DNA of 64,000 nucleotides from Dictyostelium discoideum. Its lineage: Eukaryota. Positions within the stretch are counted from its first letter, which is position 1. Each line of letters starts with the position of its first letter. The notes under the pieces are model-generated. The model had not been told where the DNA came from and did no database searches. It saw only the letters and a program-made list of their open reading frames with translations. The DNA is taken from NCBI GenBank assembly GCA_000004695.1, contig CM000152.2, positions 512,001-576,000 on the forward strand, read 5' to 3'. The position numbers were made by a program, and so were the translations under genes. Positions 13,688-37,017 of this stretch are shown in pieces.

Positions 13688-19677
<5,990 letters not shown>

Positions 19678-20286: not shown

Positions 20287-21250
20287 AAATAAAAAAAACA
20301 ATTTGGAAACCTTAATAAATAAATATGGCAAAAAATAGATTTAAATTTTTTTTTAAAAACAATACATACTGTTGCAATTATTTTTGACATTAAAATTTAT
20401 TAATTTTTTAAAACAGGTGTGGAGTGTGACACTAAAAAAAAAAAATTTCACTGTACGGTGTGTTTGGTGTGTTTTTTTTTTTTTTTTTTTTTTTTTCTTA
20501 AAGTGGTTAGGTTTGGTGGTACATATAATTTTTTTAAAAATAATAATAATAATAAAAAATAATAATAATTTTTTTAAATTTTAAAAAAAAAAAATAAAAA
20601 AAAAAAAAAAATAAAAAACAAACAAAAAAGGTTATTTTATAAATATGGTAAATTATAACTTTTAATTTTTGTTTTTTTTTTTATAAATTTAAAAATAAAA
20701 ATTAATTGAAGTGCATTCAAATAAAAACGATCTTAAAAAAACCTTTCATTATTTTTTTTTTTTAATATATTCATAATTGTTTTTTAATTTTTTTTTAATT
20801 TTTTAATATAAACAATAATAAAATAATTATAATAATAATAAATAATAATAAATTTAAATGATTTTTATTTTTACTAAAATGTTTAGATTATTTTGATTGG
20901 TTTTTTTTTTTTTTTTTTTTTTTTTCATTTCACTAAATTATTTATTTAATTCCTGTCAGTGATTAAACTTTTTTTTTTTTTTTACTATTTTCTATTATTA
21001 ATTTATTTATTATTTATTTATTTCCAGTGGTTAAATTTTTTTTTTTTTTTTTTAAATTAATAAAAAAAAAAAAATAAAAAATAAAAAAAAAAAAAATAAA
21101 AATAAAAATAAAAACAATAATAATAAAAAAAAAAAAAAAAATGAAAATAAGTGATTGTTTAAATTTGAAATCTTTTTTATTTTTATAAAAAAAAAAAAAA
21201 TAATAAAAAAAAAAAAAAAATTAATAATTACCAATTGATAAAGAATTTTT

Positions 21251-22784: not shown

Positions 22785-23598
22785 TTTTTATTTTTTTTTT
22801 ATTTATTTATTTAAATTTATAACTGCCAATGGGAGAGAAAAAAAAAAAATAGGGGCGTTACATATAAAGTTTGAAAAAAAAAAAAAAATAAAAAATAAAA
22901 AAAAAAAAAAAAAAAAACCGGAAAATTTTTTTTAATTATTTTTTTATTTAAAATTAATTATTTTTTTTTTTTTAAGAATGATTATAAATATACTTATATA
23001 TAATTTATTTAAAATTTTTTTTAAAGAATGATTATAAGCATACTTATATATAATTTTTTTTATATTTATTTATATTAATTTTCAGCAATACCTAAAAAGA
23101 AAATTGATAATAATAAAAAAAAATAAATATAGAAAAAAATTTACCATATTGAAAATAATATTTATTTTTTTTTTTTTTTCCAAATAAAAACAATTGGAAA
23201 TTCCATAAATGTCAATGTGATATTGAACATAGAAAGAAGATTAATTTTTTTTTTTTTTTCCAAGATCCAGTTTTAGAAAATAATTAGAATCAAGAAAAAT
23301 TCAGCAAGCAATCGAACATCAATCAATAAAAAACACACAATTTCTATAAAAAAATAAAAATAAAATTCTAGCAATATCTCAAATTGATTTTTTTTGTTTT
23401 GGTTTTGTTAATTAATTTTTTTTTTTTTTTAACTTTTTTTTTTTTTTTTTTTTTTTATTAAGATCTATATCATCTATATCTTATGTGATGTAAAAAAAAA
23501 TTCTTATATTATTATTATTTTTTTTTTCATTTTTTTATTTTTTTTATTTTTTTTTATTTTGATACTTTTATTTTTTTTTTTTTTTTTTTTTTATTTAT

Positions 23599-26500
23599 TT
23601 ATTCATCACCAACATGAATTAATTGATCAATACCCAATTTCATATGATTTAATTCACGATATCTTTGTTCACAAGTTTTTTCTAAAAGATCCTTTTTAGT
23701 GATAATACCTTTGAGTTTGTTATTTTCATTTACAACAGGCATATGACGTAAACCCATTGTTCTGAATAATTGAAAAGCTTCACTAACTGCAAATTCAACG
23801 TTAACGGTGATTACAGTTAAATTCATAACATCGGAAAGATCAATCTCTTGAGAGTAATCAGCTGGATCGAAATTGAAATCATTGACCGATGGTAATTTCC
23901 AGGTTAATTTGGTGGTATATTCAATGTGAGAATAGATTGCTTCAGAGTTTGGAATGTAAACATCAGAGATACGTTCTAAAATCATTAATAATTGAGTACG
24001 TAAAATGAGACCTTTGACCAACTTCTCCTCGTCATTGTTGACCACTGGGAAACCATTGTGACGAGTTTCTTTCAAGACACGAAGATATTGCCCAAGGTGT
24101 CTTTCTCTGCCAAATAGACTGGTTTCTTTGCCATGATATGTTTACACATCATCAATTTCATCTCTTTGGATTGATCTAGTTCGAGGTATGGAATGTATTT
24201 CATTTGCATCAAAAGATCAAACAATGGATGAATGAGAGCATCGGCAACCCATTTGGCAGTCATAACTGTCAACATCAATGGTAAGAGATATTTTAGACGA
24301 TCTGTGATCTCAATGAGAATAACAGTTAAACTAATGGTAAGACGAGATACACCACCCATGAAGGCAGCTGCACCCATCACTGCGTAAATACCAGGATCAA
24401 TGCTGACCTTGTCACCCAAAATATGGTAAACCACCAAACCTACGAAACGACCATACGACGCACCAATAACAAGCATCGGTACAAGGGTACCCGTTGCAAC
24501 AGCGCAACCAGCAGTATAGGCAGCGAAAAACAAATAGAAAATACAAAACAAAAACATTGGCCACAAACCCAACCGTTCAGTATTGGTAACATTATTTGAA
24601 TTGACCTTTAGTAAATTGGTGATTGACTCCTCATAGGATGCGAAAATAAGTGTTGCCATTGGATTATACCAACCCTCCTTACAATTGAATCTCTTGAATT
24701 CACTCAACTCTTTAAGAGTCTCTGCTGGATCATATGAAACACCCGTACCATTGGTGATTGTACTATTATAGATTGAACTATTATAGAATTTACTATTATA
24801 GATTGTACCATTGGCGATTGTACTATTGTAGAATGTACCATTGATGATGGTACTATTATAGAATGCACCATTGGTTAATGTAACATCGGTGAGTGTACTA
24901 TTACCGACAGAAGGGATGAATGGTGCAGTATTTTGACAAGAGAAAAACAATGGTAAAAAGAATTGAATGCAAGTTGAGAGACCAATGATTAAAAACACCT
25001 CCAACACACGTAAACTCTTGATTTTATTGATTTTCTCACGACGAAACTCTGTAACCTTTACATTGATCCATGTGAAGAGGGCCCCACCCAAACCACCCAA
25101 AACACCAATCAAAAGGAATGGAATGATCTCGAACCAATTGTAAGACTCCTTATCACCAATACCAGTGTTGAAAATGATTAAACCTGTTAAACTACCCGAA
25201 TTGGATTGAAGTACGTTCATAGTGTAAGTGGCGACCATGCAACAAAAGAAAGCTCTCCAAGTGAGTGCAATCGACCAAAACGACGACACCTCCTCCAAAC
25301 TAAACAATGTGCCACCCAATGGGGCAGAGAAGGCTGCTGCAACACCTGCACCTGCACCACTGGTAACAAAGTCTCTCTTATCCTTATCATTTCTAAATGA
25401 TCTTAGGAATGGAATTTTAAAACCAAACTCTTTGCTCTGTGCTTGTGAAAAACCGTTACCAACAATAGCACCAATATGAATCATTGGACCCTCTGAACCA
25501 GCTTGTAAACCACTACTAACTGCCAAAACCATTGATAAAAATTTAGTCCACAATGTCTTCATCTTCAATGTATGTGGTATCTTTGTTCCATTCAAATATC
25601 CCTTCACCTCTGGTATACCCGATCCTGCTGCTGTTGGTTCATAATAAACTGCCAACAATGATGAACAAGTTGCCAATAATGTATTTAATAAAAAGTATGT
25701 TAAAAATGCTAAAAATAAATCCAATTCCAAAACTAAAAAAAAATAAAAAATATTAATATTAATATTTACATATTATTTATTATTATTATTATTTATTATT
25801 AAGTTAAATTTACTTACCTGCTTCAACAAATTTAAATTTATATTTTGTAATATTTGAAACACAAGCATGTGAGAAATATGCGATTACACCAATAAAGATA
25901 CCCATAAATAATGAAACTATCCAACGTAAAACTTCGTGATCAGAGGCTAATTTTGAAAAGTTTTTATACAACTCATTACGATGGGCTTTGTTGTAGATGG
26001 TGACGTAATCTAGACATTCATACTTTTGAATTTGTAATTTATCTTTGAACCAAACTGCACGCTCTGCTACCTCGTGTTGTTCAGCCCTACGATGATGCTG
26101 CTCACGAATATTGTCTACTGGTTTCATTGTGGTTTGGGCAATGGTCTTCCAACCCTCTTCAATGGCCTTATTGGAATGCTTCACACGTGTCTCTATCTTT
26201 TTATTGGACTCGCCAATCTTTTGTTTAATCTTTTTATTTGTCTTTCCAAAAGTTTTACTCACTTTAGCTCCAAATGAATCACCCTCCCTAATATCGTCAC
26301 TTGACCCATACAAATTCTTTGGTCTATATGTTGAATGATCTCTAACAATTGGTTGTAATATTATACCATCCTCAGTCTCCTCCTCCTCTCCCTCTTCATT
26401 CTCAATGTATGCTCTTCTTTCTTCATCATCACCATCATCATCATATGATTCTGTTAATCTTTCTTCTTCTTGAATTCTAACTTTTTTTTTACTCTTTTTT

Positions 26501-26688
26501 TTTTCTGATACGCTTGAATTATTATTATTATTGTTATTATTATTATTGTTGTTGTTGTTGTTGTTGTTATTATTATTATCATCACCATCTCTTGCTAAAG
26601 ATTCGCTTGGACTATATAATTCATCTATTGATGGACTTTTATTACCATCATTCGGGTTCCCATTATCAAATGGATTCCCGCTTGACAT
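23599..26688 (-). CDS. CLC-family voltage-gated chloride channel / Cl-/H+ exchanger with C-terminal CBS domains. 5' exon 26688..~25810, intron ~25732..25809, main exon to ~24075. There is an apparent frameshift between the transmembrane core (ORF 24072..25730) and the CBS region (ORF 23599..24075)
   Basis: Exon 1 encodes an acidic, N-rich N-terminus ending …LRWIVSLFMGIFIGVIAYFSHACVSNITKYKFKFVEAG (CLC helix B region) at a GTAAGT donor; a TAG acceptor follows ~78 bp downstream. Exon 2 carries the CLC hallmarks GSGIPE (selectivity-filter helix D), GKEGP (helix F), GxFxP, and PMLVIGASYGRFVG(L), plus a glycan-rich extracellular loop. The CBS part (…LKETRHNGFPVVNNDEEKLVKGLILRTQLL… and …GLRHMPVVNENNKLKGIITKKDLL) is in a different frame. 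The 'M' heading the 24072..25730 ORF in the ORF track is a TTG codon, not an ATG. Confidence 0.8.
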
Positions 26689-27319: not shown

Positions 27320-27353
<34 letters not shown>

Positions 27354-27709: not shown

Positions 27710-27763
<54 letters not shown>

Positions 27764-29491: not shown

Positions 29492-31982
29492 TTATAAAGT
29501 TGAAGAAGGTAAAGTATAAGATAAATTTGTATAGAAACCATCTTGATTTGGAGAAACATTTGGATTTGTAGCATTGATATGGTAAATGTATTCCCAATAA
29601 ACGTCATCAATTTTAGCACCACCTCTATTGAAAGATTCAGCTGGAGAACCTGTTAAAACTGGGTTAACAATTTTAACGAATAAATGAGTTTGATCGAAAT
29701 AGTATTTGGTTCCATTACTACTTCTAACTTCAGCAGCAGATGAAGCAAGAGTACAATTGAAACCATAAGCATTTTGCCAAGCCCATTTATTTTCAGTTGA
29801 AATGGTGAATGTTGTACCTGGTGGATATGGAATTGCCAAAAAGATATATTGTTGATAGGCGACTTGGGCAGCCCAAACTTGTAAATAGGTTGGTGAACCA
29901 CCATCTAACCATAACATCCAGCCTGTGCTAGTGATACCAGTGATACCGGCATTACGGGTGATTGCTGTCTTTCTAACATCAGTGATACCATCACCGAATA
30001 AACTAACACTACCAACGAATGAATCACCTTCGTTTTGTTCACCACGAATAATTAAATTTGGTACCCAAAATTCGATATTACCAACGGATTTGCTACCTTT
30101 TTGACATACCCAAATGGTCCAGTCATTGTTGTATGTGCATTTACTATCGTCGTAGGACCACCATTTTTCATGTGAACCAACGATAGTTGGAACATGTGTA
30201 CCAACTAATGAACCATCCCAATCGATGAAATTAAAGAATCTAGATGATCCTGAATCTGGAACGATCTTATGACCAATGATTTGTGCTGGTAAAATATTTT
30301 CAAGGGTGATATTAATCGTTGATGAAATGAATTGTGGTTTATAAAGATCACTGAATGTCAAGGCGATAATTACAACATTATCATCATCTGGATAAACAGA
30401 AGTTGGATTTTGAATGAAATTTCTAAATGTAATATGAGAGAGGATAGTTGTAACGTAGGTATCATAAAATTGGAATCCTTGTCTATTGTATGATTGTGAT
30501 TTACTAAGAATATTGCCGGTTTAACCATCAACAATTGCATTTGATAACCATGCTGCACCAAATAATGATGCTGGTCTCATTGAATCATATGCTTCTAATC
30601 CAACAACTTCAACACGATCACCCCAATGTCCTAAACCAAGATTACTTAAATATACTTTAGTATTATTAAATCTCATCCATAGGTATGTACTTGAATCATA
30701 TGAAAAAATACCATCTTTACATGTTGGTCTTGAATGTCTACCTGTATTATAAACTAATAATCCAGTTACTTCATCAGTTATTAATCTTTTTTTTTTTTTT
30801 TTTTTTTTTTTCAAAAAATAAATATTTTTAAAAGTATTAATAATAATTTCATTTATAAAATTTTAAACTATATATATAATTAAAAATTTAGATCTTACTT
30901 TCCACCAACGTAAATTGATGAACCAGAAATCCATTGATAGCCACTTGAATGTGCTGTATTACCTTCAAATACTTTAGTTGTAAATGCTTGTGGTTCCATT
31001 TCAACATTTTTATGATTTCCAATTGGTTTTTCAAGATTTGGGAAACTAAAACCTGCCCAACCACCAGATGCAGAGTTACCAATAATTGTATTATATGCAT
31101 TGGTGATATAGAATCCACTAATAAATAAAAAAATAAAATAAAAAAAACAAATAATTGTTATTAATAGTTTTTTTTAAAAAAAAATAATAATAAATAATTA
31201 AAACTTACCCAGCTGCTGAATCTGCTGGTTGAGTAAGATTTTCATTTTCATAATAAGTTTCACCAGTTTGTGCACCACCTGCTGCTGGTTCACCAATTGT
31301 GTGAACAAATGCAGCTAAATTGTAAGATAAAGTATTATCCATTTCAACACCATCCTCTAAATAATAACAATGTCCATTAACATCAAAAGCAACATTTCTA
31401 GTTAACGTTAAATTATTTGTACCGTGAATAGTATAACAACGATAATAGCTTTTAGTTACAACACAATCAGAGATATAAGATTTTTGGACAACATTTGCTA
31501 AATGGAAGTGAAGTGGATATCTTGCTTTAACATTTCTTTGACCCATCTTTTTCAATTGAATACCTGCAAACTATTATTTAAAATTTTAAAAAATTAGAAT
31601 AAATAATTTTAAAAAAAAAAAAAAAAATAATTTAAATATTTACTTGTCCTTCACCAGATACTAAAACATGACCACCAAATGAATCTTGATCAGATTCATC
31701 ATTACCTTGGAAAATAATTCTTCTTGATAATAAAGCAACTTCAGCTTGATATTCTTTGCCACCATAATGATAAAATTTAATTGGGGTAGTAAATTCAATA
31801 GCTTTTCCTAATATTGATTTAATTGTTAATACTTCATTTTGATTATCTATTTCATCTTTAAATTGACTTGTTGTTATTAAAACTTGTTGGCCAACTTCCC
31901 AATTAATATTATCTTGAACATAAATAATTCTATCACCTAAATTCATAATTTTTTTTTTTTTTGATTAAAGAATTTTAATATC

Positions 31983-32040
<58 letters not shown>

Positions 32041-33240
32041 TTTAAACTTACCTGACCAAACAGTTGATGCTAATTTTGTCCATGAATTATGGTATTGTTT
32101 ACCATGAACTGAAATAAAACCACCAGCAGATACAGCAATACCTTTAGAGCCATAAAATGGTGCAATAGTATCAACCTTTGTTTTTGAACCATGGAAAATA
32201 ATATTTATATTAGCATTATAACGACATTTTGTAGTTCCCATAATGAATTTACCTTGTACTAAGATATCTTTAACATTCATTGTTAAATTTGAATCAGCAA
32301 AAATTAATTCACTTGTAGCTGGAATAACAATTCTTTGGTAAATTGCGGTTTGTGAAATTGAACATGGACTAATTAAAACTCTTTTTCCGGCTGGAATTGT
32401 AATATTTTCATTTGGTTGTGGAACGAGATTATTTGACCATGTCGATGGATTATGCCAATGGACTAAATCAGAAGCAAGGTATGGACAAGTTGATAAATCT
32501 TGTGGATCTAATGAAACGGATGCTTTTGGAATATTAATTAATTCAGAATCTTTGGTTATTAAATTTGGTGGTGCTACTACTGGTTTAGATGGAACAGTGA
32601 TCTTCATATTTTTATAGAAAATAGTGGTATCATCATAATCCATTGCTCTTGAACGATTGACTTGAAGAATTAAAGTTGAAAGACCAAGATCAACTGGAAC
32701 ACTGAAAGTAATGGTTTTACTTTTATATGTAGTTGATGAAAAATCACCGGTAAAAGTAAAAGAATACATTGGTGCTCTATAACTCCATAAAAGATAATCA
32801 ATATCACCTGGTTTGTAGAATGAAAGAGTCATATTTGAATAGGTAATACCTTGAGTCAAAACTTGGCCTAATTTGAAATCAAATGAAAATTGATAATTAG
32901 TATTGGCTTTAAGGGCTGGAGCTGATTGTTTTGCAACAATTAAAAAGTAATCTGGTGCCCATGCTGGAAGTGCAATAGAGAATTCACTTTCAACATCACT
33001 AACTGGTTGAAGGTTATTTGGGTCGGTCATGCTCCAATAGGCCATGTAATATAAATCATTACCGCCATATACAATATCAGAGGCTAAAGAAGTGGTTGGC
33101 AAAGCTGGAGATACTGGTGAATTGGAACTTGCTGGTGTTGGTCTCCAATTTGAATCTGTTGGACATGTATCTGATTTAACACTGCATATTGCTAAAAAAA
33201 GAATAAAAATCTTTAAAATTTTATTATTTATATTTTTCAT
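29492..33240 (-). CDS. Secreted G8-domain / right-handed beta-helix (PbH1) protein resembling CEMIP/TMEM2/PKHD1-type proteins, with at least 6 exons. The reading frame is interrupted by an in-frame TAA at ~30521
   Basis: Exon 1 (33240..~32052) starts with a signal peptide MKNINNKILKIFILFLAICSVKSD, then a G8-like block (…WSNNLVPQPNENITIPAGKRVLIS…IYQRIVIPATSELIFADSNLTMNVKDILVQGKFIMG…), ending at a GTAAGT donor. Exon 2 (~31936..31644; GDRIIYVQDNINWEVGQQVLITTS…EVALLSRRIIFQGN…GGHVLVSGEGQ) ends at GTAAAT. Exon 3 (~31570..31208) has RYPLHFH…NGHCYYLEDGVEM…NLAAFVHT. Exons 4 and 5 are 30888..31118 and 30521..30814. The last exon(s), …29492, continue in the same frame after the TAA (…AIVDG*TGNILSKSQSYNRQGFQFYD…). 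Several N-glycosylation sequons are present. Confidence 0.7.
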
Positions 33241-34102: not shown

Positions 34103-34344
34103 TTACAGGGTCTTTTTGATTAAAACATCTTTTTTGTCCAAACTTTTTTCTAAATCTTTTTTTATTTTATCGTCTGGTTCGTGATTGATGTTTATGACGT
34201 ATTTGAATTGTTTTTTTTTTAATTGAGTTTTATCCACAATTTCGCTTATTTTTTGTAGGCATTTGTGTTGCTTAATATTTGTGGTGTTGTTTGTGATTTT
34301 CATTTTATTTTCTTTCTATCTTTTTTATTTTTCTGATTAACTTG

Positions 34345-34400
<56 letters not shown>
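34103..34400 (-). repeat. 3' copy of the TRE5-A B-module (includes the ORF1 5' fragment), a direct repeat of 35836..36160
   Basis: About 95% identical to 35836..36160 except for a ~35-bp indel (tttaaaaagttaaaaatctggaaatttt is present only in the 5' copy). Both copies end in ctgattaacttgggtt + poly-T. Confidence 0.85.
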
Positions 34401-34701: not shown

Positions 34702-36036
34702 TTATAGTTTTATTTGGGGTAGATTTTTATCTACCTTTTGAAGTTTCTGGTTTATTTTGTCTTCTAACTGATCTTTACTTTGTTCATTGTGTTGTTGGTC
34801 TTGTGTGTTTGTGGGGTTTTTTGATTTATTGATTTGTTTTAGAATTTCCTTGTTGAAGTTGTCTATATCTTCATCCATTTTTGTTTTTATGCTTTTTTGT
34901 CCATATTCACCCAATTTTGGTTTGACTGGTGTTTTGTTGGTCTTGTTTGTTTTGTCTTGTTGTTTCTTTTTTGGTGTGTTTAACAATTTACTTGGTGAAT
35001 CGATAATTTTCGATGGTGTACCATAGGTTGGGCTGAAACTCATGATATGTTTTATTGGAGAGGAGAAGAACCATTGATTTGAAGGGATTGAAAGTGGGAA
35101 TTCTATTTTTCTTATTGCATCAGTGTTTGGGCTGGTGAAGTCGAAGATATCATTTGCCTCTCTAAGTTTTTCTTCCGTTGTTAGTCCCTTTGTTTCGCCG
35201 TGTTGTTTTATTGGTGTATTGTATGGAGATGGTGGTTCGATAGGTTTTTCTGATTTTGTTTTAATTTCTTGATTGTTTATCGATTGTGTATTGATCTCAT
35301 TCTCTATTCTTGTTAGTTCATCTACGTTTTCTAGTGATGCTTCTATTACCTTTTGAGCTGTATCATCTAGGGCCATAAATGTTTTATCATTAGATGAGGA
35401 TGTGATTGGTGGGATAATGATTGTTCTTTTTCCTTGTTTTGGTATTTGTTCTGATGTAGATTGTGGTTGTTGTTCATCTGATTGTTTTTTATTTTTGTTT
35501 TCTTCTTGATTTTCTGGTAATGAGGTTTGATCTCTCCATCCTTTGTTGGAGTGTCCAATTAATGTTAGATTGTCTAGTTCAATGATAGTGTCAAATTCTT
35601 CTACGACTCTTTTCACTGTTTTGATAATTAGAGTTTCGCCTTTAATTTCTGATTTAATTAGTTTACATCCTTCATTTTCTATTACCCATTCTATTTCTGT
35701 GAGTGATTTATACCAATCAAAATCTGTATACATATTTTTTGGTCTTAAAGTGGTTATAAATTGTCCTTTTAATTCTGCATCAAACATATTTACAAAATAG
35801 ATTACTGTACTAATACTGTCTGTGAGAATTTTGAATGTATTATTACTTTTGATTAAAACATCTTTTTTGTCCAAACTTTTTTCTAAATCTTTTTTTATTT
35901 TATCGTCTGGTTCGTGATTGATGTTTATGACGTATTTGAATTGTTTTTTTTTTAATTGAGTTTTATCCACAATTTCGCTTATTTTTTGTAGGCATTTGTG
36001 TTGCTTAATATTTGTGGTGTTGTTTGTGATTTTCAT
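34702..36036 (-). CDS. TRE5-A ORF1 (retrotransposon ORF1 protein, 444 aa)
   Basis: Intact 444-aa ORF inside the element. Its first 63 codons are duplicated verbatim in the downstream B-module copy (ORF 34103..34303, MKITNNTTNIKQHKCLQKISEIVDKTQLKKKQFKYVININHEPDDKIKKDLEKSLDKKDVLIK). Charged low-complexity composition and a size of ~51 kDa fit the published DRE ORF1. Confidence 0.75.
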   Translation of the reverse strand: MKITNNTTNIKQHKCLQKISEIVDKTQLKKKQFKYVININHEPDDKIKKDLEKSLDKKDVLIKSNNTFKILTDSISTVIYFVNMFDAELKGQFITTLRPKNMYTDFDWYKSLTEIEWVIENEGCKLIKSEIKGETLIIKTVKRVVEEFDTIIELDNLTLIGHSNKGWRDQTSLPENQEENKNKKQSDEQQPQSTSEQIPKQGKRTIIIPPITSSSNDKTFMALDDTAQKVIEASLENVDELTRIENEINTQSINNQEIKTKSEKPIEPPSPYNTPIKQHGETKGLTTEEKLREANDIFDFTSPNTDAIRKIEFPLSIPSNQWFFSSPIKHIMSFSPTYGTPSKIIDSPSKLLNTPKKKQQDKTNKTNKTPVKPKLGEYGQKSIKTKMDEDIDNFNKEILKQINKSKNPTNTQDQQHNEQSKDQLEDKINQKLQKVDKNLPQIKL

Positions 36037-36112
36037 TTTATTTTCTTTCTATCTTTTATATTTTTCTTTAAAAAGTTAAAAATCTGGAAATTTTCTGATT
36101 AACTTGGGTTCC

Positions 36113-36149
<37 letters not shown>

Positions 36150-36158
<9 letters not shown>

Positions 36159-37017
36159 TCTTTTTTATATGAAAAATGAAATAATCAAAAAAAGAGATTG
36201 TTGTTGTTGTTTGTTTTTTTCGATCTGATTATTTTTTGCTTTTTTTTTGAAAATTTTGCTACGCAAAATTCTCAAAACGAAACAAATAATAAATTACAAT
36301 AAAGTAAAAAGATGGCTTTTTAAAATAGTTTATTTATTTATTTATTTGTTTTTTAAGTCTTTTTTATATGAAAAATGAAATAATCAAAAAAAGAGATTGT
36401 TGTTGTTGTTTGTTTTTTTCGATCTGATTATTTTTTGCTTTTTTTTTGAAAATTTTGCTACGCAAAATTCTCAAAACGAAACAAATAATAAATTACAATA
36501 AAGTAAAAAGATGGCTTTTTAAAATAGTTTATTTATTTATTTATTTGTTTTTTAAGTCTTTTTTATATGAAAAATGAAATAATCAAAAAAAGAGATTGTT
36601 GTTGTTGTTTGTTTTTTTCGATCTGATTATTTTTTGCTTTTTTTTTGAAAATTTTGCTACGCAAAATTCTCAAAACGAAACAAATAATAAATTACAATAA
36701 AGTAAAAAGATGGCTTTTTAAAATAGTTTATTTATTTATTTATTTGTTTTTTAAGTCTTTTTTATATGAAAAATGAAATAATCAAAAAAAGAGATTGTTG
36801 TTGTTGTTTGTTTTTTTCGATCTGATTATTTTTTGCTTTTTTTTTGAAAATTTTGCTACGCAAAATTCTCAAAACGAAACAAATAATAAATTACAATAAA
36901 GTAAAAAGATGGCTTTTTAAAATAGTTTATTTATTTATTTATTTGTTTTTTAAGTCTTTTTTATATGAAAAATGAAATAATCAAAAAAAGAGATTGTTGT
37001 TGTTGTTTGTTTTTTTT
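36150..37017. repeat. Tandem array of ~199-bp TRE5-A A-modules (4 full units plus a 5'-truncated unit next to the tRNA)
   Basis: The motif taagtcttttttatatgaaaaatgaaataatc recurs at 36155, 36354, 36553, 36752 and 36951, an exact 199-bp period. The units are nearly identical. The outermost unit is truncated at ~37017. Confidence 0.9.

Follow-up and report, generated by a model that had tools for sequence, protein, structure and literature searches.

In a 64,000-nucleotide stretch of the Dictyostelium discoideum AX4 chromosome 3 reference (GCA_000004695.1, contig CM000152.2, positions 512,001 to 576,000; hereafter the window, to whose full length all coordinates refer), a gene of the CLC family on the minus strand is split in two: its transmembrane core ends at a stop codon, and its CBS domains continue in another reading frame. 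The gene is clcD (DDB_G0278639), and the question is whether it is broken in the organism, joined by some recoding or splicing event, or misread only in the reference. We find that the frameshift is very probably an error in the deposited AX4 sequence and that the gene is biologically intact. The original prediction offered a single-base sequencing or assembly error as the first of three readings, among which it did not choose; the base that it would require is present in every other strain, species and read-derived contig that we compared. In the organism, clcD is a single two-exon gene with a protein of about 1001 aa and, judged by its sequence, ClcD is an anion transporter of the CLC-6/7 type, with an N-terminal extension, a CLC transmembrane core and two C-terminal CBS domains.

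The frameshift as read in the window

The transmembrane open reading frame (ORF) of 552 codons (24072..25730, minus strand) ends in …KPVYLAEKDTLGNIFVS (…GNIFVS, then stop), with its TGA at 24074-24072. The downstream frame is shifted by -1 relative to the 552-aa ORF, is open from 24141 to a stop at 23601-23599, and reads …GQYLRVLKETRHNGFPVV…HVGDE. The listed downstream ORF begins at 24075, so that the two overlap by 4 bp (24072-24075). This arrangement agrees in coordinates and sequence with what had been described for the locus, and the earlier placement of the lesion (ttgggcaatatc) was accurate to the single nucleotide. What is missing is one C of a CC doublet that immediately follows …caatatc, between 24085 and 24083 of the window (after 24084); the single-C form at the lesion is ATATCTTCGT. 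With the base added, the codons AAT [AT] C/TT CGT become AAT ATC CTT CGT, while the wrong frame runs TTC GTG TCT TGA. The loss of one C thus shifts the frame by -1 and exposes the TGA four codons on. Spliced as written, the window encodes an 844-aa truncated product without CBS domains, and a single added base raises this to 1001 aa. The positions concerned, including that of an annotated intron discussed below, are:

24084..24085, minus strand: site of the missing base, ATATC-TTCGT in the window, a one-base gap against L001-L004, L006, L007, L008, L009 and L005
24072..24074, minus strand: spurious TGA stop; in the corrected frame its bases lie inside CGT GTC TTG AAA (R V L K), a motif conserved in orthologues
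24085..24086, minus strand: artificial 2-base "intron" (AT) of dictyBase, which keeps the annotated 1000-aa ClcD in frame; position deduced from the wording of the clcD account in PMC5282741

Comparison with other strains and species

The comparators came from six sources: four recent long-read assemblies from PMC12745789 (L006, L007, L008 and L009), in which the locus was reached via the neighbouring TFIIS gene, D. citrinum (L005), and the read-derived contigs L001-L004. These six independent sequences read straight through the lesion as …DTLGNILRVLKETRHNGFPVV…, each with one extra base (ATATC[C]TTCGT). In the seven-way nucleotide alignment, five comparators have ATATCCTTCGT and D. citrinum has ATATACTTCGT, and both forms encode N-I-L-R.

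At the protein level, a homologue search with the repaired protein returned a 710-aa ORF (P0001), 99% identical to the query and likewise uninterrupted across …DTLGNILRVLKETRHNGFPVV…. Intact orthologues were also among the matches, from D. citrinum (87%), D. purpureum, Heterostelium, Acytostelium and others; the D. citrinum protein (P0002, from L005) has 945 aa. An orthologue alignment had been proposed as a check on whether CLC proteins of this clade naturally end here, and it shows that no orthologue ends at the lesion and that all continue into the CBS domains. There was no AX4 ClcD protein among the results of the homologue search. An exact look-up of the 552-aa ORF, the 158-aa CBS ORF and the exon-1 ORF found no record in public assemblies, which is a weak negative given the few D. 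discoideum read sets in the collection.

P0001 is carried by the four genomic contigs L001-L004, which were assembled from several Illumina sequencing runs. Relative to the window they have six substitutions and an additional C, all of which lie within 24180-23835; the other ~1.9 kb are identical. Among the long-read assemblies, L006 (GCA_054883475.1) matches the window over 19.2 kb with 99.6% identity, and the gene called in it at the locus has 1001 aa. Its coding sequence (CDS) translates without a stop and differs from the protein of the window, repaired by one base, only by L809P, D810N, Q811P, X841L and S924T. L006 is probably the AX2-214 laboratory strain, since it is the sole near-identical assembly among three D. 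discoideum genomes and the study sequenced AX2-214 together with diverged tropical isolates. The two wild D. discoideum assemblies (L007 and L008) and the cryptic sister species "cf. discoideum" (L009) are 91-94% identical to the window, with called genes of 1000, 1005 and 1007 aa, respectively. In each of the four assemblies the intron and the normal stop are connected by a single ORF of 724-726 codons, which crosses the junction.

Two synonymous sites help to place these sequences relative to each other. At 24180 and 24114 the window and L006 agree against all wild strains and the read-derived contigs, which is the pattern expected of genuine variants of the laboratory (NC4-derived) lineage. 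It follows that the read-derived contigs come from a strain other than the laboratory lineage, and that the window and L006 have a very recent joint ancestry.

The same comparison bears on the idea that clcD is a decaying pseudogene across D. discoideum. What speaks for such decay is found in the window alone, which combines the frameshift with four nearby non-conservative replacements. Full-length ORFs are present in three other D. discoideum assemblies, in the sister species and in D. citrinum, the divergence in the CBS region is overwhelmingly synonymous (from inspection of the alignment), and clcD is expressed according to the account of the gene in PMC5282741; decay at the level of the species is thus extremely unlikely. 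A pseudogene confined to a strain was also considered and is not supported, the lesion being absent from L006, from the multi-run Illumina contigs and from the published RNA-seq, as far as the latter is described for clcD. The pseudogene reading of the original prediction is therefore excluded for the species and for the NC4-derived laboratory lineage as represented by the AX2-like L006, and what is left of it is a lesion confined to AX4, itself unlikely, to which we return below.

The published record of the site and the annotated intron

Both the missing base and the error in the reference are already documented in the literature. Singh et al. 2017 (BMC Genomics 18:120, Fig. 7; PMC5282741), who refer to DDB_G0278639 as clcD, present the same lesion at the same site of the same gene. 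In their account of clcD, the existing dictyBase model holds a 2-base intron, and a one-base insertion is seen in 22 of 23 RNA-seq reads. The missing base is put between the CLC domain and the first CBS domain, the extra base restores an Ile codon, and the TGA lies four codons downstream; the CBS domains, placed at about 827-876 and 929-977 of ClcD, agree with the window. That automated annotation would truncate the protein, as had been predicted, is borne out there by PASA, which cut clcD short at the TGA of the lesion. We placed the 2-base intron at 24086-24085 because only the AT at that position fits this description: the inserted base adjoins it, AT plus C makes Ile, and the TGA follows four codons on. 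The same paper counts 119 introns of <5 bp in 102 genes, which likely compensate for errors in the reference. The clcD locus is one of these "tiny introns" of dictyBase and the worked example for them, and we see no difference between it and the class as there described. The supplementary tables of PMC5282741 do not mention clcD.

To this record we add the exact base, one C of the CC doublet, and genomic confirmation from six independent sources. We further add the 11 other discrepancies private to the reference in a 777-bp patch, described in the next section; four of them alter the annotated protein, and none is mentioned in the clcD account of PMC5282741.

Could a very short or unconventional intron, either the annotated one of 2 bases or a GT…AG intron of 29-59 nt, be spliced out at the site and restore the frame? 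The dictyBase model, as reported for clcD in PMC5282741, does contain such an intron, and several frame-restoring GT…AG pairs of 29-59 nt and longer exist on paper. Against this, a donor and an acceptor cannot both fit in two bases, as the discussion of the clcD intron in PMC5282741 points out, every formal GT…AG candidate deletes conserved coding sequence, for example the VLKETRHNGFPVV motif, and the relatives are all collinear and uninterrupted at the site. In addition, the RNA-seq reads reported for clcD in the same paper span the site with the added base and without a gap. We regard splicing at the lesion as having a negligible probability. The earlier statement that no plausible intron is available thus stands, because all frame-restoring GT…AG pairs remove conserved coding sequence, although its premise that the only GT…AG candidate is 13 bp long does not, given the several longer pairs.

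A patch of discrepancies private to the reference

The missing base is not alone. The window is the sole outlier at this base and at 11 other sites, all of which fall within 23402-24178 (777 bp):

24172..24178, minus strand: three substitutions, at 24178, 24176 and 24172; L-D-Q in the window, P-N-P (YIPYLEPNPSKEMK) in the others, the window being alone against L006, L001, L007, L008, L009 and L005
23835..23835, minus strand: substitution; Ser in the window (IDLSDV), Thr in 6 of 6 close comparators in the alignment
23402..23499, no strand assigned: seven discrepancies in the AT-rich 3' flank of clcD, at 23402, 23410, 23414, 23431, 23494 and 23496, with a 1-nt indel at 23499

At the L-D-Q site the distant orthologues retain LEP[NH]P/A/S. 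At the seven flank sites L006, L007 and L008 are concordant against the window, and so is L009 wherever it is aligned (the exceptions are 23410 and 23414, where it has deletions, and 23431, where it is misaligned). Several of these sites show mixed A/T in the other genomes, in contrast to a uniform run of A or T in the window.

The clustering is marked. Among the substitutions between the window and L006, 10 of 15 fall in these 777 of the 19,184 aligned positions (binomial P ~3e-11); of the other five, three belong to a multi-copy repeat, one to an A-run between genes, and one is the site 30523. The mutation rate of D. discoideum, measured as 2.9e-11 per site per generation (PMC3466296), would give fewer than 0.03 real changes in 777 bp, even over a million generations. 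A patch of about the length of a Sanger read, with a dozen discrepancies against every other sequence, is the signature of low-quality reference sequence.

For the missing base, then, what we found is a change private to the window, contradicted by published reads and accompanied in the gene model by a 2-base intron (<5 bp), as described for clcD in PMC5282741. In the course of events that we favour, one C of the CC doublet would have been dropped from the deposited sequence after 24084. The dropped C would belong to an error patch of ~780 bp, together with the 11 further discrepancies private to the reference, of which four would change conserved residues. clcD itself would be neither recoded, nor spliced at the lesion, nor pseudogenised, and curators would have bridged the gap with the artificial 2-base intron. 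We infer that living AX4 cells carry an intact clcD allele.

Several points weigh against an error in the reference. All the intact sequences come from strains or species other than AX4, and a lesion private to the AX3/AX4 lineage is formally possible. The assignment of L006 to AX2-214 is our own deduction from the set of genomes in that study. L006 is, moreover, an assembly of Nanopore and Illumina data, and the lengths of its intergenic A/T runs are an unreliable standard; this weakness leaves the coding sites unaffected, because the Illumina-derived contigs and four other genomes agree there. As for the RNA-seq, we take the strain used in the dgcA work to be AX2. The samples were wild type and dgcA-null cells, and the strain is unnamed in the description of them in PMC5282741.

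These points lend themselves to a different explanation, in which the lesion is real and private to AX4 (or to AX3/AX4): a localised burst of mutation, caused for instance by error-prone break repair, would have struck ~780 bp of clcD and of its 3' flank and left AX4 with a truncated ClcD that lacks the CBS domains. The reference was indeed made from AX4 DNA, and neither the intact genomic sequences nor, with the strain unstated in the RNA-seq description of PMC5282741, the published reads speak directly for that strain. Such a burst would need 12 changes in 777 bp, whereas in the closest laboratory-strain assembly hardly any other substitution is seen in the unique parts of 19 kb. At the measured mutation rate far fewer than 0.03 changes would be expected, the variants common to the window and L006 at 24180 and 24114 indicate a very recent joint ancestry of the two, and the changes in the flank resemble base-calling errors in an A/T-rich stretch. 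Errors in the reference are, furthermore, common in this genome, as indicated by the 119 tiny introns counted in PMC5282741 and by 1916 candidate differences from the reference that are common to AX4-derived lines (PMC3466296). We therefore consider a real AX4-private lesion to be very unlikely. If it were true nonetheless, and AX4 itself carried 12 changes in 777 bp, the most-used reference strain would be a natural clcD loss-of-function or hypomorph relative to AX2, and it would present a case of localised hypermutation in a genome of exceptionally low mutation rate. As to gene conversion as a source of the patch, no protein with LELDQSKEMK is among the homologue matches listed; this covers those matches, and a genome-wide search for a diverged paralogue donor was not made.

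Absence of a frameshifting signal

The third reading of the original prediction, there held to be the less likely one, was programmed frameshifting, and we considered it together with transcriptional slippage and editing as ways to join the CLC core to the CBS domains. The geometry is suitable for a -1 ribosomal frameshift: the downstream frame is the -1 frame, and it is open over the 70 nt that precede the stop. With respect to slippage or editing, RNA reads with an extra base against the reference, such as those reported for clcD in PMC5282741, could alone pass for editing. From 24145 to 24070, all phases are devoid of a slippery heptamer of the form X XXY YYZ. The downstream 105 nt form a less stable fold than their shuffled versions, with a minimum free energy (MFE) of -15.1 against a mean of -19.8 kcal/mol (z = +1.59), and at least equal stability is reached by 194 of 200 shuffles. 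The six related genomic sequences are all in frame, which leaves no conserved frameshift arrangement, and an insertion at the level of RNA is unneeded because the extra base is present in the genomic DNA of the six other sources. Compared with established -1 sites (retroviral gag-pol, coronavirus ORF1ab, bacterial dnaX), clcD is thus similar in geometry only, in that a downstream domain lies in the -1 frame with a short overlap; it differs in having no slippery heptamer, stimulatory structure or conservation, and in that the DNA of its relatives is in frame. Recoding of any of these kinds is, in our judgement, wildly improbable, and an error in the reference is retained as the explanation.

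Architecture of clcD

With the missing base restored, the features of clcD in the window are as follows:

25818..26688, minus strand: exon 1, cytosolic N-terminal extension with a poly-Asn tract and the start of the first transmembrane helix (ATG ORF 25810..26688; donor GCAG/GTAAGT at 25818/25817)
25733..25817, minus strand: the sole genuine intron, 85 nt, AT-rich, GTAAGT…TTTTTTTTAG, by direct reading of the sequence
24085..25732, minus strand: exon 2 on the 5' side of the lesion, CLC transmembrane core and linker to …DTLGNI (Pfam Voltage_CLC)
23599..24084, minus strand: exon 2 on the 3' side of the lesion, two CBS domains and the C-terminus (LRVLKETRHNGFPVV…HVGDE, then stop; two Pfam CBS matches)

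The ATG ORF of exon 1 has 292 codons; exon 1 is identical in L006 and collinear with the D. citrinum orthologue P0002. Splicing out 25733..25817 joins …FVEA-V-LELD… in frame, and the same junction gives the intact 1001-aa CDS in L006. The 552-aa ORF represents the second exon and matches Pfam PF00654 (Voltage_CLC) with E = 3.8e-90 over profile positions 2-346 of 346; the corresponding value for the intact P0001 is 8.7e-90. From 24181 to 25800, where the Logan contigs end, the sequence is 100% identical to these contigs, and from 24179 upward it is identical to L006. The two CBS matches score E = 4.9e-19 in the frame of the window and 3.3e-23 in the uninterrupted P0001. The two CBS domains share a polypeptide with the core in P0001 and in L006-L009; the missing base puts them out of frame in the window as it stands.

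Relation to known CLC proteins

The best matches of ClcD among solved structures are CLC-7 (E = 1e-126) and CLC-6 (4e-117), both of them better than plant CLC-a, CLC-3 and the CLC-1/2/K channels. CLC-7 and CLC-6 of humans and vertebrates (PDB 7jm6, 7bxu, 7jm7, 8jpj) are lysosomal/endosomal 2Cl-/H+ exchangers, and ClcD aligns with them over the transmembrane core and the CBS region. GSGIPE of ClcD, with the gating Glu, and FSLEE, with the proton Glu, align with the CLC-7 motifs, and the junction …LGNILRVLKETRHNGFPVV aligns with …VGTVVDILSDTSNHNGFPVV. The presence of the gating and proton Glu motifs suggests the exchanger mode of transport, and ClcD is most likely, as far as such sequence motifs can tell, an anion/proton exchanger of the endolysosomal type that would be regulated via its pair of CBS domains.

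ClcD also differs from CLC-7 and CLC-6 in three respects. It has ~290 extra N-terminal residues, which include the poly-Asn tract; GSEGP replaces GKEGP; and it carries an insert in a luminal loop that is rich in N-x-S/T sequons and specific to the D. discoideum clade. The insert is encoded by an imperfect tandem repeat with a period of 15/30/45/60 nt at 24745-24903, inside the CLC core (…NGAFYNSTIINGTFYNSTIANGTIYNSKFYNSSIYNSTITNG…). It is present, with variants, in all assemblies of the discoideum clade and absent from D. citrinum and the more distant orthologues. Presumably, this luminal loop is heavily glycosylated.

Neighbouring features

The TFIIS gene next to clcD corresponds exactly to XP_642233.1. 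In the intergenic regions, the lengths of A/T runs in the AX4 reference and L006 differ by up to 15 nt (20899-21083, 22874-22920, 27320-27330, 27413, 27751-27763, 34347-34361), and a 4-nt ACCG difference is found at 22917. An ORF of 807 codons at 17254-19677 (minus strand) is made up for the most part of runs of Asn, Gln, Gly and Pro-Leu, and its C-terminal part is hydrophobic. A search with this low-complexity ORF found nothing in the database at E <= 1e-50, and its exact sequence is likewise unrecorded; probably it forms a single exon of a larger gene of low complexity, called with 1969 aa in L006.

A multi-exon gene at 29492-33240 (minus strand) encodes an 1118-aa protein with G8 and CEMIP beta-helix domains, whose length is conserved in 4 of 4 assemblies. 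It shows a single substitution against L006, the one at 30523. The ORF at 34705-36036 (444 aa) is exactly XP_642235.2 (DDB_G0278641) and falls in a cluster of 17 near-identical proteins that are dispersed over the AX4 chromosomes; because of this distribution we regard it as a probable component of a mobile element. Direct repeats of 221 nt flank it (34114-34334 and 35847-36067), after which a tandem array with a period of ~199 nt extends from 36130 to 37016.

Implications for the annotation of ClcD

The finding calls for caution mainly in annotation. Gene finders truncate ClcD at the lesion, and the curated AX4 model, which skips two bases according to its description in PMC5282741, is one isoleucine short. 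Beyond the missing residue, the annotated AX4 ClcD probably carries four wrong ones, L-D-Q for P-N-P at 809-811 and Ser for Thr at 924, which would propagate to protein databases, alignments and structure predictions. All of these would be cured if the ~780 bp of the reference at 23402-24178 were corrected with the help of reads or of the newer AX2-214 assembly. For the biology of D. discoideum the weight of the finding is small: clcD is an ordinary, intact gene for a transporter of the CLC-6/7 type.

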